The notes under the pieces: model-generated
Databases searched by the model: none
What the model was told of the DNA's origin: nothing
Seen by the model: only the letters and a program-made list of their open reading frames with translations
NCBI GenBank assembly: GCA_002245135.1
Contig: NGBS01000600.1
Span: 1 to 64,000, forward strand
Source: Proteromonas lacertae
Taxonomy: Eukaryota
DNA: 64,000 nt
Reading direction: 5' to 3'
Shown here: one piece after another, positions 11,501-63,957 of the stretch
Layout: the number at the start of each line of letters is the position of its first letter
Numbering within the stretch: position 1 is the stretch's first letter
Position numbers and translations under genes: made by a program

Positions 11501-13201
11501 TTATTAAATCCATTTGCTTTTACTATTTCACCAAAATTTGTCCATTTATTAATTGTAACTGTTTCACCACTTTTGGTTACAACCATCTCTTTATAGCCAG
11601 TAAAATCAGTTGATCCACTACTTGCTTCTAATGTACAATCTAAATCAGTTGGGAAGAATTTACCACTGTCACAATTATTTGGATTAGTACAAATCTTACT
11701 TTCATCTTCATAACTTATATAACTGATTGTATTAGCTGAATCATATCCCCAAAATGAACCTTTTATTTCATTTGCATTACCTCCACTTCTACAAGATATT
11801 TTACCACCAATATAATTTGTTAAATCAGAATATTGTCTATTCACCTTGTATAAGTTAATATTATTACTTACAATTGCAGTTAAAGATTCTAATTCTGCTA
11901 TTTGAATAGTTACACCATCAGATGGAGCAGTTATACTTTTATCAAGCGCAAAATCAGTTCCATCAAATGATTGAACTACAAACGATTTATCTCCAATTGT
12001 AACTTGTGTTGTAATATGAATAATCTTTTTCATATTATTATAAACATTAGCAGCACCATAACATGTTGAAGGTAATGTAATTGTTTTATCAGGCTTAAAT
12101 ACAGTTGAAACTATATCTTTTCCAATGACTAGAGAATAATCTGTTGCAAATTTTACTTCACATATTTTATCTTTTAAATACCATTTATTACCATAATAAA
12201 CATAATTGCCACAATAATCACAACCAGATCCATCAGTACCTTCAGTTGGTGTAGTTGGTGTATTTGATACGATTGTAGATCCTTCCAATTTACCCATTAA
12301 ATGACAAACAGCTGCAGCAGGTAAATTTCCATCATCTTTTGGAGTTATAGTTAAATCATTTATACTACCATCTGAATTTTGAGTAGATGTAATTGTTGCT
12401 GTTGTTTGTACAATTTCGCCAGTATTACTCTCACACCAAAATGGTAAATCACCTGAAGGTAATGCAATTGATACTCCTTCTAATATTGAACCATATCCTT
12501 CCCAAGTAATTGGATCAATAGGTGTATTTGCTAATGTAATTGTTTTGAAGTTGCTAAAATCTGTTCTTTCATTGCTAGCTGTGCAAGTATATGATGTAAA
12601 ATCTGTTGTAACGCTGTTAGGATCAGTATACTCAATATAGGCAACATCTTTATATTTCATCCAAACTTTCAATTTCACAGAATTAGTAGACTCAGTACAA
12701 GTTAATTCACAACTTAAAACACCATTACCACAATCAATTTTTGAATATGAAGAACCTGATAATGTTGATAGCTTGTAAACTTCTTTACTTGTTGCACCTA
12801 CAGTAACTGTGATTTTATCAGTTGGTTCAGCCAACAGCCTGTTGTTAATTGGAACAAATGCATCTAGAAGCAGTCTACCTGGAGGATCACCACCTTCATC
12901 AGTGGACATCATCACGCTGCTTTCACCATCCGTGTAAATAAATGGATTTCCTACAGGACATAACACTAATCAAATTATAAGTAATAGTTTATGTAATAAA
13001 ATATATACATTCAGAACAGTCAGCACCTCCATATCCAAATATTTCATTTTGGCCATCTCTAATCTGTGTCACATCTTGTTGATAACATTGACACACTCCG
13101 TTTTTGCTGCAAATTCCGTGGCTGTTGCAGTTATTTGGACATATTCCAAATATCACCTGAACAAGCAGTGTAGAGACATAGAAGACTAAGAATAAAGCCA
13201 T
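2584..13201 (-). CDS. Giant secreted Sig1/mastigoneme-like tenascin-EGF protein with a large repetitive insert (~3,520 aa)
   Basis: Exon 1 (13009-13201) has a signal peptide and CPNNCNSHGIC...GADCS. A 43-nt intron (12966-13008) leads to the 3460-aa ORF, which ends in ECSSQGQCNRETGQCECY...CPNNCNGNGRC...CPSGVDP...RDCSGRGICDYKTGTCECF. Confidence 0.8.
7949..11250. repeat. Intragenic tandem repeat, ~3 essentially identical 1,083-bp (361-aa) units
   Basis: Identical antisense ORFs at 8588, 9671 and 10754 are spaced 1,083 bp apart. More diverged copies flank both sides (to ~11,880 and down to ~4,500). Confidence 0.95.
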
Positions 13202-23265: not shown

Positions 23266-26200
23266 TTATTTAATATTTAAGAATTCTTTTGATAATTCTT
23301 TCTTTTCTTCTTCTTTTAATCCATTCAACTAAATTTTACTAACTGAAGTAAATTCATTTAGAAATGATTTTAATTCTGATTTATCGATGTTTTCTTTCAC
23401 TGTTATTGACAATTCATTTAGACTATCAAACAATTTTTCATTTTCTTCTAATAATCTTAATTCTCTTTCATCTAATTCATTTCCTGATATATCTAAATCT
23501 AACAATGGTTCATAATCTTTTAATCTTTCTATTAACACTTTCAATCCTTTCTCACTCATTCCAATATCTATTTCAGTTATAATACAATTATATTCATAAA
23601 ATACTTGAAAGATTATTGATACTGTTTTCAGTAATCATTTCTACAAATCTATCCATAGCATTTACATATAATTTCTACTCCTTCATCACCAATTGGATTA
23701 TTGAATATTGATAGATATTTTACACTTTCTGGCAAACAATCCAGTAATTCTTTTAATCCTTTATAACTGATTCTATTATTTGGATAAATCAACACTGCTA
23801 ATAATTTACTTGTCTAATTAATCGAATATGAGAATCATTGATATTCATATCTATTTCATTAAAATTAAATAATATACTTGACAAATCATATTTATGATAA
23901 TACCTTTCTTTTAGCCTTTTAATACAATAATTTAAATAATAATCTATTTCTTCATCACTCCATGATAAACATTTCATTTTTATAAATGGATAGTTTTTGT
24001 TTTCTAATGATGTTGAACATATTGATTTTAATCCATTTATTCTGATATTATTTCCATTTAGATATATTTCATGACATCGTCCAATTGAATTTATTTTATT
24101 GGTTAATAATATTACACTTTCATCATCTATTGAGATATTACTCAAATTCATTTTATTGCCATATATTAACATTCTTAAATTGTTTAACAATAGTTTAAAT
24201 CCAGTATTACCAATTGGATTATCTATTTAATTATAATTATATAACATTATAATATATACTATGAATTAACAATTTCTCAATATTATCATTATTTTTCACA
24301 TAATTCATCAAATACTCTATTCCATCTGAATCTATATTATTGTTACTTATATCAAGTATGATTTTTTCATGAATATTCATCAAACCAGACAATATGTATT
24401 TCAGTCCAGTAGAAGATAAACCCATTTCTATTATATAATAAATAAAAATAATAATACTTGAACAATTTATTCTATTGTAACAATCTTTTAATAACCATAT
24501 ATGTGGAAATAAGATATTCATTCCTTCATCTCCTATCTCATTTCCATTTATTTGAAGTTCCTTAAGATTTGAAAATGATGATAAATTCGTTTCTATACTT
24601 TTGTATGTTAGGTTATTATCTAAACAATAAAAAATTATCAGATTATACTACTCAAATCTAATACTTCTATCTCTCTCAATTCATTTAATCTTAATGAAAT
24701 GAATAATTTGAAAATACTGTCATCAATACCTAAATTACTTAAATTTAGCACATTATCATTTTTGAAGTATTGTATTAATGTTGGAATGTCTTTGTCAATC
24801 AACATATCTTCTTTACATTTAATATCAATATGATTTTTGAAATAGAATATAGGAATAAGCTTTTAATCCTTCTGCATGAATATTATTGTTGCATGTAATA
24901 TCTAGCTTCTTAAGATTTGGATATTTATATAATTCTTCTGATAATAATATCATACATATATCATTTAAACACATTCCCCTAAGATTCAATTCATTTTCTT
25001 TGTTGATTAATAAATGTAGATGTGGAACTAATAATTTGAACCTTCTTGGACACATTCCATCTACTATATCAATATAATAATATAATATATAATACATGGA
25101 AGATTTATATGTTTTAATTTCATAAGAGGAATTGATTTTATAAATGATTCGATGAAATCAGAACTAGCACTACAACCAAATAAATACAATTCTTTTAGAT
25201 TTGATAATTCAATAAAATATGATAAGAATAATGATTGATGTTGATTTGGAATAGTCATACCTAAGTTAATATAAATGATCATAATAATACCAAATTGGAG
25301 TTTTGCTAAATTCATTAATTTCAAGATTCGGAACAAATAGTTTATTCCTTTCTCACACAAACAAACACAATTTGATTCTATGATAAATACTTCATCATTA
25401 TGTATATTACTATCGATATTAAATATCATTCTATCTAAATAACAGTCATTTTCTCCTTTACATTGGTGACGAATTTGAGATTTCAGTCTATCTTTTATTG
25501 AATCATCTTCTTTGAATACTTTCATCATCAATAATACTGCTAATATTCTCTCATTTGGTTTACTGTTGTAAGATTCTATCAAACTATCTCGAATATTTTC
25601 ATTCTTGTTATATTCCACATAATAGTCTCTCTGAATATCAAATGGAGTTATTTCTATTGAATAATCATTATTGAATATGATTTCTTTTCTCTCATCACAT
25701 CCCATTACACTATTCTTTGACGCTTGTAACATCTTATTCGCTTTCATCATTTCTTTTCTCAACTCTTTCAAACTCAATCTATCTTCACTCTTCACTTTCA
25801 ACATTCTATCTATCATTTCCTTCATATCATCATCACATTCTACATCTAAACTGTATTTACATCTCAGGATATTATTCATTGTTTTATAAATATTATTATC
25901 TTCATTAAATGGTAATTTCTTACAAATCATTTCATATAATATACATCCAATTGACCAAATCACACTTTTATCATTACATTCTAAACCATTCAACTCTTCT
26001 GGACTTTTAAAACACACATCATATATTCTCATATCATCTTCCTTTCTCAACGTATTTAAGTATAAATCACAGATCTTTGCATTGTTATTCTCTTCATATA
26101 TTATGTTACTACTCTTCAAATTGCTAATCACAATGTTATAATCACATAATACATCAAAAATATCACATATTGAACATATCACATTACTTATATCAGTATT

Positions 26201-26527
26201 TGAAATGGATTTATTGTGAATTATCTCTTCTAAATCCAATAAATAGTATTTTCTTCTTAATAACATCATATTATTACCGATTATTTCACAAGCAGATGGA
26301 TAGATGAAGGATAAACAACTATCAATCAAGAATGAGTTATTCTCTAAGAATTCTTTTATTCTAGCTTCTTTAACATTTTCTAAATTTAATATCTTAATAC
26401 TTTTTACATTATTCTGATGCTCTATTACTAAATCCACTTCTTTCTCGCCTTTTTCTACACTTTCTTTTATCTATTATGTATAAATCAATTAACATACTTC
26501 TACTGCATATGATAATAACGAATTCAT
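23266..26527 (-). CDS. Pseudokinase + RI-type leucine-rich repeat protein (possibly disrupted)
   Basis: Kinase fold with SNLKSSNI, CDL and KSPEE in place of HRDLK, DFG and APE. Followed by LRR exons (LDISNNNIDSDG, LDISGNELD). Apparent +1 shifts near 24862, 23800 and 23780, and an in-frame TAG at 23329. Confidence 0.75.
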
Positions 26528-27371: not shown

Positions 27372-30300
27372 TTAAATTTACTAATAAAATCACTGTGATT
27401 ATGTAAACAACTTCCTAACACCAACTTATAAGTCAATTCATTAATAAATTCTTTATCTTCATCATTGAAAAATGATAAAATACTTTTACCATTGATCTCA
27501 TCATGTAAGATGGATAAATTGACTATTTCTTGATGTTCTTTATCACGATAATCCAAAAGATTATCTCGAGCATTTCTTAAAGCTCTATATAAGTATGAAG
27601 GATGAACAATATCTTTTACTAAAGCAGATAAATATAAAGCAAATCTATTTAATAATATTAAATAATTATATATATATATATATATACATTTCTTTGGGTT
27701 TATAAACACTATACAATTGAGAATTGATTAATAAACAATTGATTGTTTGAATCACATCAGCTACTCTTAAATCCATGTTAAACTGAGATGATTTTATCAA
27801 TTTATCATCCACATAATCTAAAAATGAATTGAAATAATCTAATGGAATTGCAACTAATTCTAATAAATTGTTCTTTTGTAATATACTCAAAGTAACAAAT
27901 TTTAATAATTCATTGTTACTTTCACATTTCTTCATTGTTTCTACTTTATTAACTCGGTTTAACTCAGGTAATTCATTCATAATTATTCCACTTTCTTTAT
28001 TTGCGGCTTTTGCATTATTTTCATCATTAGAGATTATATTACTAGCTGAATAAACATCAAAATCCCAGTCATTAATTTTACTGTATAAATATCGAATTTC
28101 AGTTGATGGACTATTATATCCAATTGATTGTAATAAATATAAATCATTGTTATGAATTATATTATTGAATTGAGCTATTACAGATAATGAGTAATAATTC
28201 ATTTTTGAATTTCTTTTTGCAGGATTAGATGGATTATTTGCAGCATTATTACCATTTGTTGATGTATTGGAAGTGCTTGGAGGTAAATTAGTAAAAAATA
28301 CATTTCCACATCCACCACCAGCAGCACCTACTCTAGGAGATAATGGTTTATCTTTAAATCCACGAGGACTAACAGGTACAGAACTACAACTTTGGAAATT
28401 TGATGAAATTGTTATGTCTTCGAAAAACAATGGTTTATCTTCTTCACTTAATTCATTAAAAGTGTTTATGAAATTATCATTTAAATCATTTCCATAGATG
28501 TTTATAGTATCATCAATTTCACTAATTCCACCATTTTCTTCATTATTATTATTTGGATTACTGTTATTAGTTGAAATCACGAGTTATACTGTTTGGTTGA
28601 ACTGAAGATGGATGAAAACAACAAAATAGTTTTTGATACCATTTCAAATTCGAACTACTTCTTCTTCTTCTTTTATTCATTTCTTCTATTTCTTTTTCTT
28701 GAGGTGATAATGGTTGTTTAGAAGATGGAACACAACAACAACAACAACTAACACAACAACAAGGACAACATCCACAGTAATTACAACTTGAAATATTATT
28801 ATTATCATTATTAATAAAAGATGGAGATAAAGAAATGTTGTTATTCGCAGTATTTGGTAAAGGAATAGTCGAACTAGCTTGAATCTGAGCAGTTGATGGA
28901 TTATTGGATATTGGATTAAGCGATTGATTTTGGCTTGAAGAGACTTGACTTGTGGATGTATTACTGTTTATATTGGGAGTATTACTGTTCGCATTTCCAT
29001 TAATTTCCAGTGGAATTACACCAGGATCAGAAAATCTGACAATATTAATAGCTAATATATTTCGATTACTGTTATTTACACGATTATTATTACTTCGATA
29101 GGGAACTACATTGATATTATTCATGTTGATTGTGCTGTTGGTATTATTATTATTATTATTATTAGTGGATATATTTGATGTAAAATTACAATTATTATTA
29201 TTTCCTTCAAAGAATTGTTGATTTTGTACTTTATGAAGTGGAGATTGGTTTATTGTATTACTACCAGTTGATACACAATTCTGCATTTTGGAGGGAGTTA
29301 AAGGAATTGGATTAAATGCAGTTATTATTGGAGCTGATGGTCTCTATATATTATAAATAATAAATAAATGAATAAATATACAGCCATTCGAACTGAAGCA
29401 GTTGAATGAAAACTTTTGTTTATATTTATAGCTGAAGGTCTAGCTGACATATGTTTCATTAAAGTTGATCCTAATAATTTACATCGTACTTTATTCGCGA
29501 TATTTACATCTTCACATTGTAATAAATGACGATAATAATGAATTGAATAAACAGTGCGATAATATTCATTACAAAACCCATCTAAATTTGATAATTGTTG
29601 AAAAAAATAATCAGCTACACTTTTATGAATTCTTTTTCTTTGTTCAAACAACACTCGTTGATAGATAATATCTCGAATCACAATGGCTGTGAATTTATAA
29701 CATCTTCCTTGTAATGGTTTGATATTATCACTTACATTATATGTGTGAGGACATTCCATTTCTATTTCATGAGGTATTGATGGTTCTACTAAATTGAAAT
29801 ACTGCAAAGTGTTCATATAATCCATAAAGTAATTTGCATAATTACTATCACTACTTTTCTATTAATAAAAAGATAAAAAAAAGTAAATAATATATAATAT
29901 AAAAGTAAATACTTTTGGAAATATTGTTGCAACTAATGCTAATTCAAATGTTCCACTTAAACAACCACCTGTGAAACTAACTACAGCTGCTGTTTTTAAT
30001 AATAAGAATTCCATTGGTTTTAATTTATCTAAATAAGTACTAATTCCACGAGTTATTTTATAGGGAACAACGAAATTATAAGGAACATCATGCTGGATTC
30101 TTTGATCATTGAATTTTAATACATTCTTATTACATTCTTTTACTACTTGAATCCATTTATTATTCAATAATGTACGTATAAAACGACTAACATATAATGG
30201 ATTTCCACCAGTGAATTGATTTACTAATACTTTTATACTTTCAGCAACTACTTTTACATCTAATGTCTTTTGAATTAATACATTTACATCATCACTTTTT

Positions 30301-32532
30301 AGTGGATATAATTCAATTAATTTACTGTAAGTAGATTGCAATAAATTAAAGTAATATTGAGAAACAGCTGTAAATATTGGTGTATATCGATTATTATGCA
30401 ATGGCCTACAACTAATGATAGTCAAAATTGGTTTAACTCTCAAAAATGGAGATGTTGTTATATTATATAAGATTTTCCAATCAATTTCATTCATATATTG
30501 TCCTTGGTCAATTATGATTATTAATGGTTTAGTTCGTTTATACAATATTCTATCTAATAATGAGATTTCTTTTTCATCTTTCATTATATCTTCATTTACA
30601 TCAATTGGAGTAATTGGTAAAAATAAATTATGCTTCTTTATTTCATCTTTATATTCTTTCTTTTCATCCTCATCTTCTACTAATTCTATTATTTTATGTA
30701 TTAATTGGTTATAAATATAGCATCGAGTATTCATTGAATAAGTATCACCTATTGCATCTACTAAATCATAATTATTATTTATTATAAAAGACTCTAGTTC
30801 AATACATGTTAAATCACTCTTCTCATATTTTTTATTCAAAGCATTTGCTATGGTTTGAATCATTAAAGACTTTCCTGTTCCTGTATCTCCTGTTACTATT
30901 AAAGTACAAGATTCAGGGATTGGCTCGACCAATTTATATAATTGTCTTTTTATTTCACTGATTAACATCTTCATAGGAGCTGTTAAGATTATTTTGTTAT
31001 TTTCGATTTCATTATTCAAAGTGAAACTTCTTTCTATACTTTTATCTGGATAATAGGTGTAAAATACTTCAACAGCTTCACTTTTACCTTTTAAATTGAT
31101 TGGTTCATTCGCTTTGAATTTTAATTGATAATAACTATCAGCACTATTCTTTGTTGTTTTGTCAATTAATATATTTGGACAAATACTTTTATCTCGACAT
31201 TTACATGCTAATTTTTGAGCATTTTGCATCAATCTTGCTGCTGTATTTACCACATCTCCTAACACTCCATATTCTTTACGACTACCAGCTCCTAAACATC
31301 CACAATGAGCTATACCTGTTGTAATACCAACATAAGGACGATATCCTAACGATTCTAATCGATTTACTAAGGTTAATGCTGATAAAACTGCTCTTGTTGG
31401 ATCATCTTCATGAGCTAATGGAGGTAAACCAAATACAGCTAAGAGTGTACTACCTTTATCATCCACTAGGAATTTATTTAGACTACCTTCATAGTCATAT
31501 AATGAAGCTTGAACTGCTACTAATACATCTTGAACTTGTTTTAATTGCATATCTTTAATTTCGATTAATTTACTGGCTTTTAAACCGACATTTACAAATA
31601 AAATTGTCATTGTTCGAACCTCTGCTGCCCAATAAGCAGCATCTTTCTGCATGTATGGTATAACAGCTGCTGCTACAAATTTTTGCATATCTGACAAAAT
31701 CTCTTCATGTTTTTCTCTTTTCAATGATATTAATCTAATCTGTTGAGTTGAGTTTATTATTTTTACACATCCTAATGGTAATGTCGTCCCTTTCATACAA
31801 TCACTCAAATAATGCCAAGAATCAAGAGACACAACGACATCTCCTGGACCGCCTATAATAATACACATAAATAATTAATTTATATGATATATATACACTG
31901 CTCTTCACAATCAAATGCTGCTAATAAAGCAGGACCACATAATAAATATTCTAATCTGCCTAACACACCACCAACATACAATACATACGATTTACCACAT
32001 CCTATTCCACATTTAACTCGGAAAACAACACCTTCGCCAATTTTGTAGTTATGTAACTCTTTTTGTATATCTAATGCACATTGTACAGCTCTGTGAAGAG
32101 TTGTTTTCAAATCCCATTCTTCTACTGTTTCTGAACTCCACTATTAAGAGATATATATTTGAAATATACGACTATCACAACAGCATCACCTACATATTTA
32201 AATACATCACCTCCTGACTTTGTTGTTATCCTCACCAGCGATTCCCAATAACTGTTTAAATATATACTTATATCCTCTGCCCCACGAGCTCCTCTGCTAG
32301 CTACTTTTTCACTGAGATTTGTGTAACCACTTATATCGGCTAATGATGAATAAATATTAAATCATACCAAACATAACAACAGAGTCACACTTTTTAAATG
32401 ATGGAACTTTCACTTCATCCCCTGACTTTTTCGATTTTGCAAGTTGTCTAATAACACATTCTATACAACATCAGAAAATGATGTAATAATACCAGGCACG
32501 AAATCTTCATAACGAGCTAACTTCGCTTCCAT
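26654..32532 (-). CDS. ADCY10/soluble-type adenylyl cyclase (2 cyclase domains) + STAND NTPase + Cys/Asn-rich linker + degenerate class I PDE domain
   Basis: C1 has FADISGYT and KYVGDA; C2 has KFLVDDKG and GDVVNTAARLM; Walker A is GDTGTGKS. The C-terminal part has INDWDFDV, VADVIQT, LSALVKDIVHP and NNPVKPF..W. Several ~30-nt introns and one +1 shift near 28580. Confidence 0.8.
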
Positions 32533-50059: not shown

Positions 50060-52057
50060 ATGAGTTCAGTACCCAGAGGTCCTCCACCACGAGGCCCACC
50101 ACCTAGAGCAATACCAGGTCCACTAGCCAGAGGCGCACCAATGACTCCACCAAGAGGTCCACCAGGCCCACCACCACGTGGTATGGGTCCTTCACCATCA
50201 GGTCCTCCATCAGGTCCACCAATGGGACCTCCTTCTGGTCCTCCACCTAGATCTTTACCAAATGCTGGTCCAATAACTCCCAGAGGTCCACCACCATCAA
50301 GAGGTCCTCCAGGTCCACCTCCTCCATCAATTACACCAAGAGGACCACCTGGACCACCTCCACAAATGTCACCTAGAAGTCTACCAGGTCCTCCACCACG
50401 AATGCCTCCAGACATGAATAATCCTTCAGGTTCTCCTCCATCCAGTTCAATGGGAAATCCTCCAATTAGTAATTTAAATAATCCACCACCACCCAGAGCT
50501 GGTCCTCCACCCCGAATCGCTCCACCTCCTCCTCGTGCAGCACCACCACCATCTATCACACCAGGTGGTCCTCCAATGTCAATGAATCCACCTCCTCCTC
50601 GAATGAGTGTAACTCCACCACCGCCAAGAGCTGGTCCACCTCCACCACAACCATCTCCCTCTAATAATAGTAGTTTACCACCTGCTAGAGGTCCACCACC
50701 TTCTCGAGGTCCTCCACCATCTCGTGGACCACCTCCAATATCTGGTCCTCCTCCTTCAAGAGGACCACCACCTCCAATGTCATCATCAGCAGGTGGACCA
50801 CCACCATCTAGAGGTCCACCACCCATATCAGGACCACCACCATCTCGTGGACCACCACCAGGATTGAAAGGACCACCTATTGCTTCACCACCACCACCAA
50901 GAGGTCCAAGTTTAGTTGGTTTACAAGTAACACCTGATGGTAGAACAAATACTTCGTTAAGAGGAGGTGGTGGTGGAGTATTACCTCCACGTGGTTTACC
51001 TCCACGAGGTCCTCCACCTGGTGCTCCAACTCCATCAGTTAATATTCCTCCAAATGCTACGAATGGAATGCCTAGAGGTCCATTACCTTTACCTCGTGGA
51101 TTACCTCCTCGTGGTCCAATGAGTACAGGTCCAAATGGTTTAGGTGAACCATCTAAACCAGCTCCACCATTACCATTTGGTAGTAATAATAATGGAATGA
51201 TCGAAGGTGAAAGAGATCCAAATGGTAAATTCACAGTTCGAGAAATTCAAGAAGCTTTCCAAGCCTTTGATTTAGATAATAATAACTATATAGGAAATGC
51301 TGAAATTCGTCATGTATTAATCAATATAGGTGAACAAGCAAGTGATGATGAAATAGATGAAATGATTCGAATGGTAGATAAAGATGGTGATAACTTAGTG
51401 AGTTTTGAAGAATTCTATGCGATGGTAACAGGTGGTCAAAGTCCTCCGGCTGGTATAATGGGTGGTGCAACAGTTGGTATAAGTAATAAGACAGTAGGAG
51501 GCCAAGATGACAGTAGTAAGATGATAGAAATGAGACAAAATCGTCGATTGGCTTTACAAGAATTTAATGATGATAATAAATTCAAACCTGAATCAATCAA
51601 GAAGATTTATAAACGATATCAATCATTTGATAAGAATCCAAATGGTTTAGTGAATTACAATGAATTCTGTGATATATTCCAAGTAGAAGCAAGTCCAATA
51701 ATTGAGAAATTGTTTGGAATGTTTGATAAAGAAAAGAGTGGAGAGATTGATTTGAAAGAATTCTTAATCAGTTTGAATAACTTTAGTGGAGCAAGTAAAG
51801 ATGAAAGACTTCGTTTTGCTTTCTTAGTATTTGATGAAGAAGGTAATGGAGTAATAAGTAAAGTAGAATTAATGCGAATATTGAAAGCTAATCACATGGC
51901 AACTTCTGATGCTGAAGTGAAACGAAAAGCTGAAACAATAATGAGTCAAGCTGATAAAGATGGAGATGGTGTAATAACATTTGATGAATTTGTAGTAGTG
52001 AGTAAGAAATATCCAAATATTCTATTTCCAACCTATGCTTCAATCGAAAAGAGTTGA
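50060..52057 (+). CDS. Proline-rich (PPRGPPP) N-terminus fused to calmodulin-like and calcineurin-B-like EF-hands
   Basis: About 370 aa of Pro/Gly/Arg repeats. EF-hands DLDNNNYIGNAE, DKDGDNLVSFEE, DKEKSGEIDLKE, DEEGNGVISKVE and DKDGDGVITFDE. Intronless. Confidence 0.88.
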   Translation: MSSVPRGPPPRGPPPRAIPGPLARGAPMTPPRGPPGPPPRGMGPSPSGPPSGPPMGPPSGPPPRSLPNAGPITPRGPPPSRGPPGPPPPSITPRGPPGPPPQMSPRSLPGPPPRMPPDMNNPSGSPPSSSMGNPPISNLNNPPPPRAGPPPRIAPPPPRAAPPPSITPGGPPMSMNPPPPRMSVTPPPPRAGPPPPQPSPSNNSSLPPARGPPPSRGPPPSRGPPPISGPPPSRGPPPPMSSSAGGPPPSRGPPPISGPPPSRGPPPGLKGPPIASPPPPRGPSLVGLQVTPDGRTNTSLRGGGGGVLPPRGLPPRGPPPGAPTPSVNIPPNATNGMPRGPLPLPRGLPPRGPMSTGPNGLGEPSKPAPPLPFGSNNNGMIEGERDPNGKFTVREIQEAFQAFDLDNNNYIGNAEIRHVLINIGEQASDDEIDEMIRMVDKDGDNLVSFEEFYAMVTGGQSPPAGIMGGATVGISNKTVGGQDDSSKMIEMRQNRRLALQEFNDDNKFKPESIKKIYKRYQSFDKNPNGLVNYNEFCDIFQVEASPIIEKLFGMFDKEKSGEIDLKEFLISLNNFSGASKDERLRFAFLVFDEEGNGVISKVELMRILKANHMATSDAEVKRKAETIMSQADKDGDGVITFDEFVVVSKKYPNILFPTYASIEKS

Positions 52058-52494: not shown

Positions 52495-55400
52495 ATGAAA
52501 ATAAATGATGAAAAATATGAAACTATTGGAAAAGGTGGTTTTAGCAAAGTGTGCTTAGTAAGACATAATGGTTTAAAGCTAGCTAGAAAAGAAATTAAAA
52601 TAAAAGAAGGATATTTAGAGACAATAAAAAGGGAAATAAAGATTTTAGAAGAGTTGAGAGATCGAAATATCTTGATACTAAAAGATAGTGTAATAATTGA
52701 AGAAGAAAATATATGTTATATATACACAGAGTATTTAAAAAATGGTGATTTATGGAGAATAATATATGAAAAGAAAGTGAAAAAAGAAGATTTCTCAATT
52801 TATGTATATATTATTACAAATATGTTATATATAGGAGATATACAGTTACATGAGTGATTTAATAAATGGTTTAAAGTATATTCATAACAAAGGGATAATT
52901 CATCGAGATTTAAAACCCGGAAATATCTTAGTAGGAGATCATAATGAATTAATAATCAGTGATTTTGGTTTAGCAACTGAAAATGAAAATAGTGATGATG
53001 TATTGAAAGGAACTTATAATTATATGGCTCCTGAATTATATCAAACCAGCCCTCCTCCATATTCAACAGCAAGTGATATATTTTCATTGGGTTGTGTATT
53101 ATATGAATTATACACCTTAAGAATGGCTTTTGAAGGAAAGAACAAAAGAGAGATTATAAATAATATATTTTTAAAAGAAGAATTAGTTTTTACGAGAGTT
53201 AGTGGAGTTGAAATTCCTCAAATAGAAACATTAATAAAGCGTATGTTAGAGAAAGATGTAAATAAAAGAATAAAACTTGATGAAATAGAAGAAGAAATAA
53301 ACAAAATATCAAACACTCCTCCTGTTCCTTCTGTAAGTGATTTATCATTTTCTTCACCATTAATATCTGAAGCTTCAACCGAATTAGCTAGTTTTTCATC
53401 ATATTATTCATTAATTTTATCGTTTTATTTAGAAGGTGGTTATGTAGAAGGTAAAACATTGAATGAAATCATTAAAATGAGCAATAAAGAATTCTTATCC
53501 TATTGGAAAATTGAATTAACAATTGTATAGTAATATATTTATTTATTTAAATCATAGGTGTTATTTCCTTCAATAAATCAAGAAAATCCTCCATATAGTG
53601 AAGAACATGCCAAAGAATTAATTAAGAACAAAGAAATATATCTAAAAGAATTACATATACTGATTGATTTAATTGATCATAACAACCTGGATACAATCAA
53701 CTCAATAATCAAGTTCTTATACTCAATAGAAGATGAAGAATATATTGAAAAACTTACAAAAATAAAAAAATACATTGAAAATTATACAAAAGGATGTGAA
53801 AGTTATAATTCAGTAAATATATTATCTATTATTTCTTTATAGAAGAATTATATAAGATCAATAGAATATCTTGTAACTGCTTTAAATGATTCATCTACAT
53901 ATAATGAAAAATTTAAATGCAAATTCAAAATTGGTGAAAGTTATCGAAATCTAGTATAAATTTTGTGTATAAATGAATGTATAGAATCAATTTAAAGAAT
54001 CTAAAGAGCGTTTTGAATCAGCATTAGTTTTTGCATTTACAAATAGAGAAAAATGTGATTGTTATTTAAATATTGGTTTGTGCAGTGCAAATGTTGAAGA
54101 ATATGAACAAGCTATAAAATATTTTAAAACTGCATTTGAGAATCTCTATGAATTAGAACATCTTAACCCTTTAGATGAAGAATCTTTGCAGTATATTAAC
54201 AGAATGAAATATTTATGTAACAACAATATAGCAATGTGTTATGGCAATCTAGTATAACCATAAAAATATTCATATTATAGGGTGATTTAAATAATTCACT
54301 AGAACATTTTAAGTCTGCATTCCAATTTACTTCTAAAAATGAAGAAAAATACGAATGTTGTTTCACTATCAGTAATTTTTATGAACTAACAGTATTATAC
54401 TTGATATAAATGATAATATAGAGAGAAATTAAAAAAGCAATTGAATATTTAGAATCTGCTTTAGACTTTGCTTCCACAAATGAAAAGATTTACTTATGCA
54501 ACTTTAGAATAGGTGTTTGTGATTTGAAGATTGTATGATTATAAACAATTAATATTATTATAGAGGGAATATGAAAAAGCAAAAGATTATTTTGAATCTG
54601 CATTAAATCTTGCATTAACAGATGAAGAGAATTATAGTTGCAGTTTAAATATTGGTTTATGCTATTTTAATATTGTATAGTAGTATCTAATTTACTTTTA
54701 TTATAGAAAGAGTATGAAAAATCATTAGATCATTATAAATCTGCATTAGGATTTGCAACTATAAAGAAACAAAAATATATGTGTTTTATGAATTTAGGTG
54801 ATTGTTATTTGGGTTTTGTATATATTTCAATTGTTTTATAATAGAATGATAATGAAAACTCATTTAATTGTATTACTTCGGCAATTGACTTTGCTGAATC
54901 AGATGAAGATAGATGCTTATATTATATATATATGTGTAAATATTTATTTAAACTAGGTAATATTGAAGAAGCTATAGATCAATACAATAATGCATTAGAA
55001 TTAGCTAAAAGTGATTATGAGAGATTTAGATGTAATAATGAAATGGGTAAATGCTATTTTGATATTGTATATATATGAATGTGATTATAATGAAAATAGA
55101 AAGATTATGAAGAATCAAAGAAATATTTGAATGAAGCAAGTAAATACATATCCAGTGTTGAAGATGAATTTCAAAGGATAGAATTTGAAGAAATGTTGAA
55201 AAAAGTGAATAATGGAACAAGTGGAGATACTTCTTCTTGTGATTCTAAAATTCTAAATTCTTATTTACGAGGTGGTTTTATAGAAGGTAAAACATTAAAA
55301 GAAAAAGGAGAAGGAGGTTTTAGCAAAGTGTGTTTAGTTGAACATAATGGTTTAAAGCTACATAGAAAAGAAATTAAAATAAAAGAAGGATATTTAGAGA

Positions 55401-58400
55401 CAATAAAAAGGGAAATAAAGATTTTAGAAGAGTTGAGAGATCGAAATATCTTGATACTAAAAGATAGTGTAATAATTGAAGAAGAAAATATATGTTATAT
55501 ATACACAGAGTATTTAAAAAATGGTGATTTATGGAAGCTGATAGATAAAAAGAAGAAAAGTAAAGAAGATTTCTCAGTAAATGTATATGTGATGATATAT
55601 TAATGATATTTAGGAAATGATGATGTATATGAAAGATTTAATAAATGGTTTAAAGTATATTCATAACAAAGGGATAATTCATCGAGATTTAAAACCCGGA
55701 AATATCTTAGTAGGAGATCATAATGAATTAATAATCAGTGATTTTGGTTTAGCAACTGAAAATGAAAATAGTGATGATGTATTGAAAGGAACTTATAATT
55801 ATATGGCTCCTGAATTATATCAAACCAGCCCTCCTCCATATTCAACAGCAAGTGATATATTTTCATTGGGTTGTGTATTATATGAATTATACACCTTAAG
55901 AATGGCTTTTGAAGGAAAGAACAAAAGAGAGATTATAAATAATATATTTTCAAGAGCAGAATTAGATTTTTCGAAAATAAGAGGTGAAAGAATACCTGAA
56001 ATAGAAACATTAATAATGCGAATGTTAGAGAAAGATGTAAATAAAAGAATAAAACTTGATGAAATTGAAGAAAAAATCAGATTATTGTCTTTTACAAATG
56101 GTGAAAATCAATTAAATGAAAATGAAACATTATCTCTTTCTTCATCATATTCATCTCATTTTTCCTTTTATGAATATTTTTCTATTATTATTATTTTCTA
56201 TTTAGAAGGTGGTTGTATAGCAGGTGAAACATTAAAAGAAATAAGTGAAATGAGTGAAGAAGAATTCAATTCATTTTGGAGAGATAAATATTCATCTGTA
56301 TATTTATTTCTCTATTATTACAATAGATATTTTTTCCATCAATCAATCAAGAAAATCCTCCATATACTAAAGAAGATGCAGTTGAATTAAAAAATAATAA
56401 AGATAAATTTCTAAATGAATTACATAAAGTAATTGATTTAATTGAAAATAACAACGAACATCTAATCAACTCAATAATGAATTTCTTAGACTCAATAGAA
56501 GATAGAGAATATATGGAGAAACTTTGTTATAATCATCAATCCCTTACTTTAGTTTTCTATTTAGAAAATGGTTGTATAGCAGGTAAATCATTAAAAGAAA
56601 TAAGTGAAATGAGTGAAGAAGAATTCAATTTATTTTGGAAAGATGAATATTCATCTGTATATTTATTTCTCTATTATTATAATAGTTGTTATTTCCTTCA
56701 ATAAATCAAGATGGTCGACTATTTTCATTAAAAGATTCAAAAGTATTAAAAATTAATAAACATTTATATTTGGATGATTTAATGAGAGTTATTAATTTAC
56801 TCATCAACAGAAATATGAATTATAATAAATTAGTCATATTAGAGTTTTACAAAATAATTAATGAGATTATAGATGATGATAAAACAATTGAAAATTATGT
56901 AGATGGTATTTTATTCTCATATATACCATCTGATTCTATAGTATTTATGTTAATTATTATATTTTTAACAGGTAAAAGAAAGAGTAAAAATGAGTAGAAA
57001 TGAGATAGATTTAGTTGTACAACATAAAAATGACATAAAGAAAGTTAAAGTGATAAATATTGAAGGAATAAAAGAAGATAATATAATCAATATTTGTGAG
57101 GATTACTCTTTATTGGTAGAATATTCTTCATCATTCATATATCCTTCAAGAATATTTCAGTTTAGAGGTGTGGGTGAGTATATGATAATATATAGAGAAT
57201 ATTATTACACTGATTTAGAGGAGGTAATACATAATAAATCATTATCAAGAAGTGATATATTTAGTGTATTATGTTCAGTATGTGATATATTAATAGTATT
57301 AAATGAATATGTTTTAGAAGTTGGTAATTTAAAGAGTAGTAACATACTATATGATAATTATGGTGAAATAAAACTATGTGACTTATGTATGAATTTAATA
57401 AGAAAAATAGAAGATATGAGAATATATGATATCTGCTTCAAAACCCCAGAAGAGTTAAATGGTTTAGAATGTAATGATAAAAGTGTGATTTGGTCAATTG
57501 GCTGTATATTATATGAGATGATAAACAAGAAATTACCATTTAATGAAGATGATAATATGAATAAAACAAAAGAGAATATTATGAGATGTAAATACAGTTT
57601 AGATGTAGAATGTGATGAGATGATGAAACAAATAATAGAAAGAATGTTAAAAGTGAAGAGTGAGGATAGATTGAGTTTAAAAGAGTTGAGAAAAGAAATG
57701 AAAAAAATGAATGAGATATTAAGAGATGAAGATAGTAATTTGATGATATTAAGTGATAAAAAACAGGTTCTATTCAATAATGATAAAAATATTGTTACAA
57801 TGCCAATAATATATCCACCAGAGTATTATATAGAATGTGATAAATATGACAGTATATATAATATATTATTAAATATAATAATAATCTTCCAATAGATATT
57901 AGAGATCATTTTATAGAATTATATAATAATAAACCAAATGAAAGAGTATTATCTATTTTATTAGTGATGAAGTTATACAAATGGGATTATTCAATCCAAG
58001 ATAAAGTGAAATTTCAAATTCATCACCTATGTAAAGAAAGAGGTAGAAATTGTTATTTAGATAGAATTATATTTGATATTTATACTTACGATAATGATAA
58101 GGACATAATCGAAATTGATTCTGAATGTATTTGTTTATGTGAAAAAGGCATGAATTATTTCTTCAGAATATTGAAACTTATTAATCCAATAAAACTCAAT
58201 TTTGGTATAAATTTGATTAATTATATTGATTTAGGTGTTAATCTTCCAGTGAATAATCAACTATTATTTGGGTCATATTTTTCTTTACTACCAAATATAC
58301 GAGAGTTGAATTTTCATAATTGTCATATTAATACAAAGTTTATAGAATCTTTTGTAAAATCCTTACAGTTTATGAAATTAAAACATGTAGATTTTCGATG

Positions 58401-58445
58401 TATTTATTTTTCTTTTTCTTTTTCTTTTTCTTTTTCTTTTTCTTT

Positions 58446-58477
<32 letters not shown>

Positions 58478-61400
58478 TTTCTTTTTCTTTTTCTTTTTCT
58501 ATATTGTTATGAAATAGTCAATCCAATTGGTCCAATTGGTTTTAGATTATTACTTCCCTATTTACATTTATTAATAAACAAGAATAATAAATTAAATCTT
58601 GAAAGAATGAGTTTAAATGATGAATCAATGATGTTACTATCAGAAGAATTATATAAATATCCATACATTGAAAAGATCAATATAGAGAATAATAAGAACA
58701 TTCATATAGAAGGATTAAAACAACTATTTTCAGTATTTTCCTATTCAAAAATAGAATATGATACAAATGGAATTAATTTGAAAGATGTTATAGGAGATGA
58801 TAATCATCAAGAAGATTTGGATGAAGTGAATATAGATAGAGTAAAAGATAATAGGAATATAAAGATGCAAAAAGATATAATTGAAAATGTAGTTTTTAAT
58901 TCTCCTTTATCACCTTCTTCTCATATTAATAATCCTCCTCACAGTCATTCATCATCGCCAATAGATAATTCATCCTATCCAGCATATGATCGTACAATAA
59001 TTTTGTCATTCTATTTAAATTGTGGATTAATAAATAAAAGATCTTTGAAAGAAATAGCTGAAATGAACAGTAAAGAATTGTCATACTTTTGGAATGACGA
59101 TTTAATACCTGTATATTCTGTATTTGTAATGCATAATAGATGTTCTTTCCTTCAATCAATCAAAAAGAACCTCCATATACTCAAGAAGACGCAACAGTCT
59201 TAAAGAATAAAAAAGATAAATTTCTAAATGAATTACATAAAGTAATTGATTTAATTGAAAATAACAACAAAGATCTAGTTAATTCAATAATCAAGTTCTT
59301 ATACTCAATAGAAGATGAAGAATATATCGAAAAACTTACAAAAATAAAAAAATACATTGAAAATTATACAAAAGGATGTGAAAGTTATAATTCAGTAAAT
59401 ATATTATCTATTATTTCTTTATAGAAGAATTATATAAGATCAATAGAATATCTTGTAACTGCTTTAAATGATTCATCTACATATAATGAAAAATTTAAAT
59501 GCAAATTCAAAATTGGTGAAAGTTATCGAAATCTAGTATAAATTTTGTGTATAAATGAATGTATAGAATCAATTTAAAGAATCTAAAGAGCGTTTTGAAT
59601 CAGCATTAGTTTTTGCATTTACAAATAGAGAAAAATGTGATTGTTATTTAAATATTGGTTTGTGCAGTGCAAATGTTGAAGAATATGAACAAGCTATAAA
59701 ATATTTTAAAACTGCATTTGAGAATCTCCTATGAATTAGAACATCTTAACCCTTTAGATGAAGAATCTTTGCAGTATATTAACAGAATGAAATATTTATG
59801 TAACAACAATATAGCAATGTGTTATGGCAATCTAGTATAACCATAAAAATATTCATATTATAGGGTGATTTTAATGATTCACTTAGAACATTTTAAGTCT
59901 GCATTACAATTCACTTCTAAAAATGAAGAAAAATACGAATGTTGTTTTCACTATCAGTAATTTTTATGAACTAACAGTATTATACTTGATATAAATGATA
60001 ATATAGAGAGAAATTAAAAAAGCAATTGAATATTTAGAATCTGCTTTAGACTTTGCTTCCACAAATGAAAAGATTTACTTTATGCAACTTTAGAATAGGT
60101 GTTTGTGATTTGAAGATTGTATGATTATAAACAATTAATATTATTATAGAGGGAATATGAAAAAGCAAAAGATTATTTTGAATCTGCATTAAATCTTGCA
60201 TTAACAGATGAAGAGAATTATAGTTGCAGTTTAAATATTGGTTTATGCTATTTTAATATTGTATAGTAGTATCTAATTTACTTTTATTATAGAAAGAGTA
60301 TGAAAAATCATTAGATCATTATAAATCTGCATTAGGATTTGCAACTATAAAGAAACAAAAATATATGTGTTTTATGAATTTAGGTGATTGTTATTTGGGT
60401 TTTGTATATATTTCAATTGTTTTATAATAGAATGATAATGAAAACTCATTTAATTGTATTACTTCGGCAATTGACTTTGCTGAATCAGATGAAGATAGAT
60501 GCTTATATTATATATATATGTGTAAATATTTATTTAAACTAGGTAATATTGAAGAAGCTATAGATCAATACAATAATGCATTAGAATTAGCTAAAAGTGA
60601 TTATGAGAGATTTAGATGTAATAATGAAATGGGTAAATGCTATTTTGATATTGTATATATATGAATGTGATTATAATGAAAATAGAAAGATTATGAAGAA
60701 TCAAAGAAATATTTGAATGAAGCAAGTAAATACATATCCAGTGTTGAAGATGAATTTCAAAGGATAGAATTTGAAGAAATGTTGAAAAAAGTGAATAATG
60801 GAACAAGTGGAGATACTTCTTTTTGTAATTTTCAAATTGTCAATTTCTATTTGCATAATGGATGTATAGGAAATAAAACATTAAAAGAAGTAAGTGAAAT
60901 GGATGAAGAACAATTCAGTTGGTTTTGGGATGATGATTATTTATCTGTATATTATATTATTATATATTTATCTACTTCATTATAGATATTATTCCCTTCA
61001 ATTAATCAAGAATATCCTGCATTTTCATTAGAGGATTCTAAAGTTTTAAAATCAAATAAAGACAAGTTTTTACCATATTTAATGAAAATAGTCAGTTTAC
61101 TGATAAAAAGAAATGATGATGTGAAAGAAAAGAAATCGTTAATTGCTGAAAGAATGAATGGTGAATCAATAATAAACATTAAAGAATTATTAGTAGATAT
61201 AGAAATTCCAGAATTAATAAAGTATATAAAAAGTAAATATGGCGAAGTGAATCTGAGTAATATTGGATTAGATGATGTGTTATTTAAATCATTCATTTCG
61301 TTGAGATCAAATGAATTGAAAGAAATAGAAGTTTTTGATATAAGCAGTATAAATTAATTATTTTAATATTACATAGATAATAATCTAACATATAAAAGTA

Positions 61401-63957
61401 TTCAAACACTTATAAATAGTTTATCATTTTTCACCAATGTTAAAGAAGTTCAATTATTTGGTAATAGAATAGGAGATTTAGGGATGCTTGTATTATCTCC
61501 ACATTTGAATTTACTAAAAGTGTTATTATGATAAAATAAACTGCAGTAGTATAATTGATATGATTTTAATATGAAATAGAAATGGGATTATCATCGATTG
61601 GATTAAGATATTTAGTGGATGGATTGAAGAATAGTCATGAAAAGATAATACTTGATATAAGTGAAAATAATATTGATTCAGATGGAATAGAATACTTGAT
61701 GAATAATATGAAAGAAAATGACAATATTGAAAAGTTATTAATTCATGGTATATTTTTATATTTATATTATAATAAACAATAGATAATCCAATTAAAGATA
61801 TTGGATTTGATTTATTGTTAGAGAAGTTGAATATGTTAGTTTATTGTCATGAAATGGATTTGAGTAATATAATAATAAATGATGAAAGTGTGTTATTATT
61901 AACAAACCAAATATATTCAATAAAAAGATGTTATACAATAAATATGAATGGAAATGGTGTAAGTATGAATAGATTAAAATCAATATGTTCAAAATCATTA
62001 GAAAGTGAAGAATATCCATTTATTGAGATGAAATGTAAAGACTGGAGAAATGAAGAATTAGAATCTTATTTGAATTATTGTATAAAGAAGAAGAGAAGAG
62101 ATAATAGAAGATATGATTTTTCAAATTTAACACTCAATGATTCACATATGTCCTTAATAAAGCAGATGAAATATTCCGAGATTGATTTATCAAATAATGA
62201 TATTAGTAGTAAAGGATTAAGAGAATTAACAAATTCTTTTACAAGACAATCAATATTTGTTTCAATCCATAACAATGAAATTGGAGATGAAGGAGTAGAA
62301 ATAATATGCAAATATATTGACAAATTTGTAGAAAGAGATGAAAAAGAAAATCCCAAATCATTAAATCTATGTAGTATATATTTAATCATGAAATATAATC
62401 ATATATATTTGAATAGAAATAGGAATGAGTGAGAAAGGATTAAGAATGTTAATAGAAAGATTAAGAGACTATTATCCATTGAAAGAAATAAATCTAGAAA
62501 GTAATAAATTTAGTGATAAAAAATCAGAGTTTGAAAGAATAAAAAGTGATAGAAAATTAAATACAGAATATAATAAAGAAAGAATGAATATACTATTATC
62601 TAATTATAGCGGAGGGGGAAATAATGGTGGAAGAAGATTAGGTGGTGGTGGAAAAATGGGAAATGGAAATGGAAATGGAGGTGATGGAAATAGAACAGCT
62701 TTATTTTATACTAATTATTCACCAGCTCTTCCTTCAAGTAAATCTTTTTATTTATACAATGCTCCTCTTCAGTATAAAACATTAACAGAAATAAGTGATA
62801 TGGATTTTGAAGAATTTAATATGTATTGGAGAGATAAATTTTTATATGTATTTAGATAATATGTTTAAGTTAATATAATAGGTATTATTTCCAACAATTG
62901 ATCAAGATGATCCAAAATTTCCAATAGAAGATTCAATTGAATTAATAAACCAGAAAGATAAATTCATTGGATGTATAAGAAAGATATTTAATTTATTGAA
63001 GAAAGAAAATGAAGGCAGAAAAGAAAACCATTTATTTATAATCGAATTATACAAATTTATTTCAAAGAATATTAACAGTAAAGAAAAAACAAAGAACTTC
63101 TTAATTGATGATATTATATTTACATATCTAATATGTCCAACTCTAGTATTTTTATTGTTTTAATAGTATAGATAAAATCAGGATTAAACAAAAATAGTAA
63201 TGAAACAGATTTACAACTCCAATTTGAAAGAAAAAATAAAATAATGAAAATAATAAATGTTGAAAAAATAAAAAAAAATAGGAGAAATGATTTTACAATA
63301 AAAAACAGTCTGTTGTGTAAGTATTGTAATACTAATACCTGCCAATTTAGTGTTTTTGAATTGAGTGTTAAAGGTGGATATATGTTAGTGTGGAGAGATT
63401 TTTATAATAGAGATTTAAAGAGAATGAATAAATTAAATCTGGATATTTCATTTATTGTTTTAGAATCAGTAAAATTATGCAAAATTTTAATATCTTTACA
63501 AAGTAAAAGAATGATAATATACAATTTAAAAACATCTAATATAATAATTGATAATGATGGTAAACTAAAACTATGTGATTTGTTTCTTAATAATTTACGA
63601 TATTCAGATGATTTAACAATCGAAGATATCTGTTATAAAAGCCCTGAAGAATTATGCGGATATGAGTGTAATGATAAAAGCATAATTTGGATTTTAGGTT
63701 GTATATTATATGAAATATTAACCTATAAATTACCATTTAATAAAGAAGATAATATCGAAAAAACAAAAGATAATATAAGGAGATGTAGATATGAAGAAGA
63801 TTTATTAAATAATAATTTGATGAAAGAAGTAATAAGTGAAATTTTTGTTATTAAGTATGTAAATAGAATAAGTTTAGAAGATTTGAAAAATAAAATGGAG
63901 AGTATATTTGATTCTACATTAAAAATAGTTGATAATTACAATGTAGTTAATATTTGA
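52495..63957 (+). CDS. Modular mega-gene: kinase-X-TPR-X'-kinase-X-X-pseudokinase-LRR-X-TPR-X-LRR-X-pseudokinase
   Basis: ORF pieces join through ~30-nt GT-AG introns. Two intact NEK-like kinases (GxGGFS, HRDLKPGN, DFG, APE), two pseudokinases (GNLKSSN and YNLKTSN, CDL), TPR-like and RI-LRR exons. +1 shifts at 59728, 59883, 59947, 60080 and ~61520. Confidence 0.7.
52525..55950. repeat. Near-identical kinase duplication (~52525-53170 and ~55315-55950)
   Basis: Long exact nucleotide matches across both kinase exons; the intron and flanks differ. Confidence 0.9.
53700..60820. repeat. ~1.5-kb TPR block duplication (~53700-55235 and ~59282-60820), introns included
   Basis: Identical antisense ORFs at 55026 and 60612 (offset 5,586). 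Introns are identical between the copies. Confidence 0.93.
58406..58500. repeat. (TCTTTT)n microsatellite inside an intron
   Basis: Visible hexamer run in the intron beginning near 58400. Confidence 0.9.

Follow-up and report, generated by a model that had tools for sequence, protein, structure and literature searches.

The closest described counterparts of the array reported here are the one-repeat-per-exon genes of brown algae. In the NB-ARC-TPR genes of Ectocarpus, each TPR is carried by one of a series of equal-length exons of 42 aa (126 nt), a multiple of three; the paralogues are clustered and have an attached signalling domain, inactivated TPR exons lie within introns, and exon order is little conserved even between recent duplicates (Zambounis et al., 2012; PMC3341825). 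The brown algal LRR-ROCO genes also have one repeat per symmetric exon and a variable predicted binding face, along with features of their own, namely phase-2 exons of 72 nt, inverted intronic exons, splice variants in the annotation and a hot spot of recombination (PMC3341825; PMC11378527). The LRR-kinases of Ectocarpus combine a kinase with a one-repeat-per-exon domain, made in this case of 72-nt LRR exons; the genes are rarely tandem duplicated, the paralogy of their exons is traceable, and neither reshuffled nor inactivated exons were found in them (PMC3341825).

The TPR array analyzed here belongs to Proteromonas lacertae and lies in a window of 64,000 nt, the stretch of contig NGBS01000600.1 to which all coordinates refer. 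A preliminary description of this DNA had likened the array to those of brown algae and, as far as layout is concerned, the likeness is real. One TPR per exon, exons of equal length divisible by three, clustered paralogues, an attached signalling domain and a host that, by its CCT-alpha, is likely to be of stramenopile type are shared with the NB-ARC-TPR genes, and the symmetric exons and variable predicted binding face with the LRR-ROCO genes. However, the exons have 37 aa (111 nt) here, no inactivated exons were found on either strand of the 64 kb, the introns of 27-33 nt being too short for one, and exon order is kept in the one pair of copies available. An NB-ARC domain N-terminal to the array was not found when 17 stretches were scanned with Pfam, the upstream exons giving Pkinase and a domain, designated X, that is described below. 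With neither NB-ARC, orphan exons nor changes of order, the array thus works more like the non-shuffling LRR-kinases of Ectocarpus, its closest functional match, although its exons are TPR units of 111 nt and its locus is a tandem mosaic of different domains. What is new in it are the register, the intron size and the partner domains. The literature covered on TPR exon structure, on Blastocystis and Proteromonas and on kinase-TPR families, which leaves out most subscription journals, contained no paper on this family. A study of the splicing of NB-ARC-TPR genes was reportedly done by Teng et al. in 2023.

Exon-intron layout and register of the TPR array

The array proper is made up of seven exons on the forward strand: U1 (53843..53953), U2+U3 (53985..54251), U4 (54281..54391), U5 (54422..54532), U6 (54564..54674), U7 (54707..54817) and U8+U9 (54845..55066). 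Their coordinates and their lengths of 111, 267, 111, 111, 111, 111 and 222 nt, given in the preliminary description, are exact to the base, and unit alignment bears out its reading of the second exon as two units plus 15 aa (a 37-aa unit and a 52-aa unit with the 15-aa insert) and of the last one as two units, with no intron between units in either. Each of the seven has TAG before it and GTA after it, and is free of stops in no frame but frame 0. The six predicted introns between them (31, 29, 30, 31, 32 and 27 nt) are GT-AG and phase 0, and they occupy the same repeat position, as had been claimed; two further predicted phase-0 introns at that position, absent from the earlier list, flank the set. 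The first of these (53813..53842, 30 nt, TPR position 14|15) separates U1 from helix A of TPR 1 (53771..53812), which would form the end of an X exon, its register being placed with the Pfam TPR positions downstream and with relatives. After the second (55067..55099, 33 nt) come helix B of TPR 10, a capping helix, a linker and, at the end of this stretch (55100..55306), the first part of an X domain, which is joined within the exon to the Gly-loop of kinase 2. Counting the helices in both flanking exons, there are ten TPR-type repeats of 37 residues with ten helix A-B turns, and a predicted intron is present in eight of these turns.

Both strands were searched for stop-free AG|exon|GTA cassettes flanked by intron-like sequence. 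Eight were obtained at 111 nt, all of them in this array and in the second one described below, versus 0-2 per length at 12 further lengths between 93 and 129 nt, so the layout of the array is not a product of chance. An intron caller based on codon usage recovered all eight TPR introns, every one in phase 0, in a test that was not fully blind, given that its donor and length preferences had been chosen after these introns were seen. Any of the eight, if retained, puts an in-frame stop inside the intron itself; this stop is the second codon in four of them (those starting at 53954, 54252, 54533 and 54675), and retention would truncate the protein exactly at a repeat turn.

Pfam TPR families matched four of the seven array exons with E values of 5.7e-6 to 0.02, U2+U3 among them (TPR_1, E value 1.4e-4), in all cases under the curated cut-offs. 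The array resembles canonical TPR solenoids (Pfam TPR_1/TPR_2) in its consensus positions, with the TPR consensus present at positions 8, 20, 24 and 27, in its predicted helix-turn-helix and in its variable concave face, and differs from them in that its single exons score under those cut-offs, its period is 37 instead of 34, and its unit is not helix A plus helix B. Residues 2-16 of U6 align to TPR_1 positions 16-30, so this exon begins at TPR position 15. One exon unit corresponds to helix B, helix A of the next repeat and, between them, a linker that exceeds the usual one by three residues, U1 comprising helix B of TPR 1 and helix A of TPR 2. A structure model of U8+U9 (pLDDT 82) has four helices, at residues 2-15, 20-36, 40-53 and 57-72, and the site equivalent to an intron (37|38) falls in a loop. 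Searches against PDB structures gave many TPR proteins among the matches listed, none of them reaching E 0.001. Positions 2, 5, 6, 9, 12 and 13, which contact the ligand in TPR co-crystals (PMC1261162), are the most variable of the array (2.36 versus 1.63 bits, P 0.001), as a measure of column variability and not a test of selection. Per-site variability, which the preliminary description had proposed to map on a TPR model, does therefore peak at the ligand-facing columns, but it does so in TPRs generally (PMC1261162).

A second copy of the array in a putative mosaic host gene

With 18 predicted introns taken out, an uninterrupted frame of 2,186 codons starts at the ATG at 52495 and encodes, in this order, kinase 1, X, the TPR array, kinase 2, two further X domains, a pseudokinase, an LRR-like stretch, X and the start of a second TPR array. 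Past five frame breaks it goes on with X, an LRR-like stretch, X, a second pseudokinase and a stop at 63957. The region 52495-63957 (+) may be a single mosaic gene of ~3,450 codons whose second half is interrupted, in this assembly, by five frame shifts. Such a gene would hold two kinases, two pseudokinases, six copies of X, and two each of the TPR and LRR-like blocks.

Kinase domain 1 (52495..53287) has one predicted phase-0 intron (52804-52834) and matches Pfam Pkinase with E values of 1.8e-11 and 9.4e-37 on its two exons. Like kinase domain 2 (55298..56066), whose catalytic motifs are intact, it keeps the Gly-rich loop, the beta-3 lysine, HRD..K..N, DFG and APE, and by these motifs both are predicted to fit active Ser/Thr protein kinases. 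In 56972..58740, the first pseudokinase, which has neither HRD nor DFG and matches Pkinase with an E value of 2.3e-20, is followed by the LRR-like stretch. The LRR-like label was assigned by eye and by likeness to a paralogue on the minus strand; in the distal part of the gene (60839..63957, comprising X copy 5, the LRR-like region, X copy 6, the second pseudokinase and the stop, with a frame break near 61525) the LRR-like region matched LRR_6 with an E value of 0.021, under the cut-off, and the second pseudokinase, the last domain before the stop, does not have the catalytic motifs. The minus-strand paralogue (23474-26496) is an inverted version of the pseudokinase and LRR-like parts with 70-72% DNA identity, without X or TPR and without the intron seen at 57852-57895. 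The 118-nt intron at 58400-58517 (+) is enlarged by a TTTCTT microsatellite, its minus-strand counterpart (25064-25095) having 32 nt. The protein probably acts in cytoplasmic signalling, its TPR groove binding a peptide partner and coupling it to the neighbouring, predictedly active kinase; a role in defence is conceivable only by analogy.

A second copy of the whole TPR block, not noticed in the preliminary description, is located at 59284..60821 (+), with the array proper at 59425-60652, 5.6 kb downstream of the first. Over the shared block (53702-55235, 1,534 nt) exon order is the same and all eight introns are identical, and the copies are separated by five substitutions and four one-base insertions. 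The block ends ~110 nt before the first TPR intron and 135 nt after the last, inside exons on both sides. Upstream, the flank of copy 2 differs (35 substitutions in 144 nt); this divergence and the five substitutions led us not to favour copy 2 being a pure assembly duplicate. All four array-internal substitutions lie in exon U4, in a span of 40 nt (P 0.0003), and three of them change the residue. Such a cluster may represent an exon-sized exchange or conversion tract derived from an unseen third copy, which counts against block-wise copying. However, the 350-nt stretch that includes these substitutions also holds all four insertions, each repeating the neighbouring base, and poor consensus quality is thus an alternative to conversion.

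Orphan or inverted TPR units were not found outside the two arrays with protein and DNA profiles on both strands of the 64 kb. Amid diverged stretches, two tracts, of 173 and 316 nt and with exonic ends, are identical between kinases 1 and 2, and 55243-55312 matches X at 56180-56249, with the X start joined to kinase 2 inside an exon. Judging from its sequence, the locus is recently rearranged at the scale of domains.

Origin of the symmetric exons

In the preliminary description it was pointed out that any exon of the array could be removed or doubled without loss of frame. This is arithmetically true, all exons being multiples of three and phase 0-0. The proposal built on it, that the array is a substrate for combinatorial variation, is not supported within the window, where copy 2 has the same order, the units are diverged and there are no orphans. 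We consider it probable that the layout goes back to an old tandem duplication of one exon with one ~30-nt intron, and that the array is now copied as a whole block and spliced in a fixed manner. A phase-0 intron would have interrupted the helix A-B turn of the ancestral repeat, and tandem duplication of this intron-bearing repeat would have made every new exon symmetric and 111 nt long; two of the ten turns would later have lost the intron, or never had one, and the units would then have diverged. Since tandem duplication of a one-intron repeat gives symmetric exons automatically, the eight phase-0 introns can be taken as one ancestral event, and since any such duplication yields equal phases at both ends, the symmetry needs no selection for shuffling. 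We also rejected the uniform phase 0 as an independent sign of such selection, because the introns represent one homologous position and about half of the introns called elsewhere are phase 0 as well (21 of the 44 predicted outside the locus, where this is the commonest class). The kinase and X-domain introns of the same gene are also phase 0.

The nine units share 8-49% identity in protein (mean 28%) and 47-69% in DNA over 36 pairs, with the U3 insert excluded, U5 and U6 being the closest pair (69% in DNA), and the longest exact repeat within the array is 15 nt. The introns of the array, too, are no more similar to one another than introns from outside it (P 0.67). Synonymous sites are close to saturation, in line with an old duplication: where residues are identical, 193 of 288 codon pairs are identical, versus 169 expected at saturation (eight units). 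The moderate excess is a counter-point to such an age. Five relatives retrieved with the X profile, from other 50%-identity clusters, run into the TPR region and end in Val at position 15. In four of the five the Val belongs to the first repeat and a short tail follows it, while relative P0128 lacks the first intron, so that one 37-aa unit is read before the Val end at the next turn; this unit is no closer to U1 (11/37 identical) than to U5 (12/37), and unit order may thus differ among distant members of the family, a counter-point to block-wise inheritance. A terminal Val is what is expected from an unspliced GTA donor, and the relatives therefore point to the same intron position. On the evidence of their protein ends, not of their DNA, the TPR intron position is likely to be old and family-wide, and introns at single TPR turns can apparently be absent in the family. 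Word-based searches among longer proteins gave no full-length spliced relatives of the array, which is weak evidence. A metagenome scan with exon U2+U3 left one locus out of 102 candidate stretches, an unrelated intron-free ORF of 1,134 aa that was dropped.

If the repeats had instead been duplicated free of introns and these had been inserted later, independently, at a favoured site, it would be understandable that the array introns show no special likeness, as mentioned, and that two turns here and one in P0128 have none. Against this, eight introns fall at one of 111 positions per repeat and none elsewhere in the array, the exon ends share no conserved motif, and short, A+T-rich introns presumably lose similarity fast, all of which makes independent gain very improbable. 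Low, although somewhat higher, is the probability that we give to combinatorial alternative splicing, by which a fixed gene would produce isoforms with different sets of TPR exons through in-frame skipping. Every exon would allow it, being 3n and phase 0-0, and splice variants of Ectocarpus ROCO genes are reported to differ in repeat content (PMC11378527). Yet skipping a single TPR exon would need an intron of 170-327 nt, and the 32 introns modelled for the locus have 26-44 nt with a single exception. This exception, of 118 nt, indicates that longer introns are apparently spliceable, and the intron caller, with its upper limit of 60 nt, cannot show that long introns are rare. Among 65 eukaryotes skipped exons are mostly flanked by long introns, and the exceptions in which skipping occurs with short introns (Ectocarpus, Klebsormidium and Bigelowiella) are a counter-point to the view that exons are not skipped here (PMC6142364). 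The eight introns have GTA donors and TAG acceptors throughout, as other introns do, and units so diverged may not pack beside new neighbours. In a short-intron ciliate, regulation most often concerns intron retention and alternative 3' sites (PMC12862383). With the duplicated, fixed array that we propose, introns of ~30 nt would likely be recognised across the intron, which would favour retention, each case giving a stop, over skipping. Such introns, together with the low G+C content of the window (~22-30% outside one proline-rich gene), are reminiscent of Blastocystis (PMC12129017).

A more substantial alternative, although still an unlikely one, is an ongoing exchange at the DNA level, in which paralogues at other sites of the genome would swap, gain or lose 141-nt exon-plus-intron units, or convert exon-sized patches, and so build a varied receptor repertoire like that of brown algae. 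Symmetric exons permit this, and one exon holds all the ligand-facing positions of one helix A, which are the most variable columns; ligand-face variability is, however, general for TPRs, as mentioned above. The confinement of the four substitutions to U4 would fit a converted patch, the family is diverse (18 family matches) and the locus plainly recombining. On the other hand, order and number of units are alike in both copies, orphan and inverted units are absent in the 64 kb, and near-identical units are lacking, since even U5 and U6, whose closeness could be ascribed to exchange, stay at the 69% nucleotide identity that is the maximum between different units. The 30-nt introns are also small targets without shared homology, and the block ends seen are exonic; intronic recombination is favoured where introns are roomy (PMC8001218). 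Invariance of exon order across paralogues, which had been put forward as an argument against shuffling, holds for the one pair available, and this pair is very recent; a single comparison, too recent for much shuffling, is equally a counter-point to the block-wise reading. According to the old-duplication reading that we favour, present variation would arise as paralogous domains recombine and convert one another, over kilobases as well as over less than an exon. It is doubtful, but conceivable, that an expanding, hitherto undescribed family of kinase-X-TPR/LRR proteins forms a two-level receptor repertoire, with domains recombined at X and single 111-nt exons, each with one complete ligand-facing helix, converted between paralogues, in which case shuffling of the brown algal style would have evolved independently in a genome with introns of just 30 nt.

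The same layout with ~30-nt introns, in a recent duplicate moved as one block, offers a contrast to the interpretation of such arrays as shuffling devices, and speaks for symmetric exons being, in themselves, a by-product of repeat duplication. The host gene seems more promising: its kinases and pseudokinases, with the TPR and LRR-like blocks, form a mosaic that recombines and is set on an unnamed domain. If the family does exchange single exons, receptor diversification would become directly testable in a unicellular stramenopile.

Domain X and other features of the window

Domain X is an unnamed helical domain of ~100 aa, present in six copies on the forward strand and with one conserved phase-0 intron. 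Copy 1 (53417..53755) is split by a predicted phase-0 intron at 53525-53557; copies 2 and 3 are in tandem (56190-56524 and 56549-56880), copy 4 is at 59003..59337, and copies 5 and 6 are at 60839-61177 and 62740-63076. Of 19 matches obtained in a search with an X profile, 18 belong to the family, and the other, P0125, was discarded as a bacterial repeat protein without relation to it. Four relatives read straight through the X intron position, which supports the predicted intron. The relatives join X to kinases, to TPRs and to another unnamed repeated domain (P0122, P0135 and P0140), and in the structure model of P0123 the X block has a pLDDT of 77-96.

Comparison of X with Pfam gave no family even at E 10, and comparison with PHROGs gave kinase matches only. 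Against solved structures the best Z was 5.2, with unrelated helical proteins, which is no sign of a new fold, and an X exon used as the query of an atlas search retrieved nothing usable. A candidate relative of X is OGFr_N (PF04664). Among the 50 viral matches listed by Foldseek, an OGFr-named protein had the highest probability (0.57) and the lowest rmsd (3.6), with an E value of 1.1. Alignment of X with ten Pfam-confirmed OGFr_N proteins using hhalign gave probabilities of 0.7-4.7%, with a score equalled by one of 60 shuffles, which is not significant; the profile alignment has a sensible register, but the core motif of the family is not kept in X. A relationship between X and OGFr_N is thus a weak lead.

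On the minus strand, a single stop-free frame of 3,461 aa (2584-12969) contains tandem units of 1,083 nt, with identities of up to 99%, and ends in EGF-like repeats at the C-terminal side; it may resemble stramenopile mastigoneme proteins. An intron-free frame of 666 aa (50060-52057, +) has ~370 residues of Pro/Gly/Arg-rich repeats followed by motifs that, by eye, are EF-hand-like. Frames at 29325-31874 (-) resemble, also by eye, an adenylate/guanylate cyclase domain and then a P-loop ATPase, an architecture presumably like that of signalling switches. The best named matches of the CCT-alpha encoded in the window are from oomycetes, with 67%.
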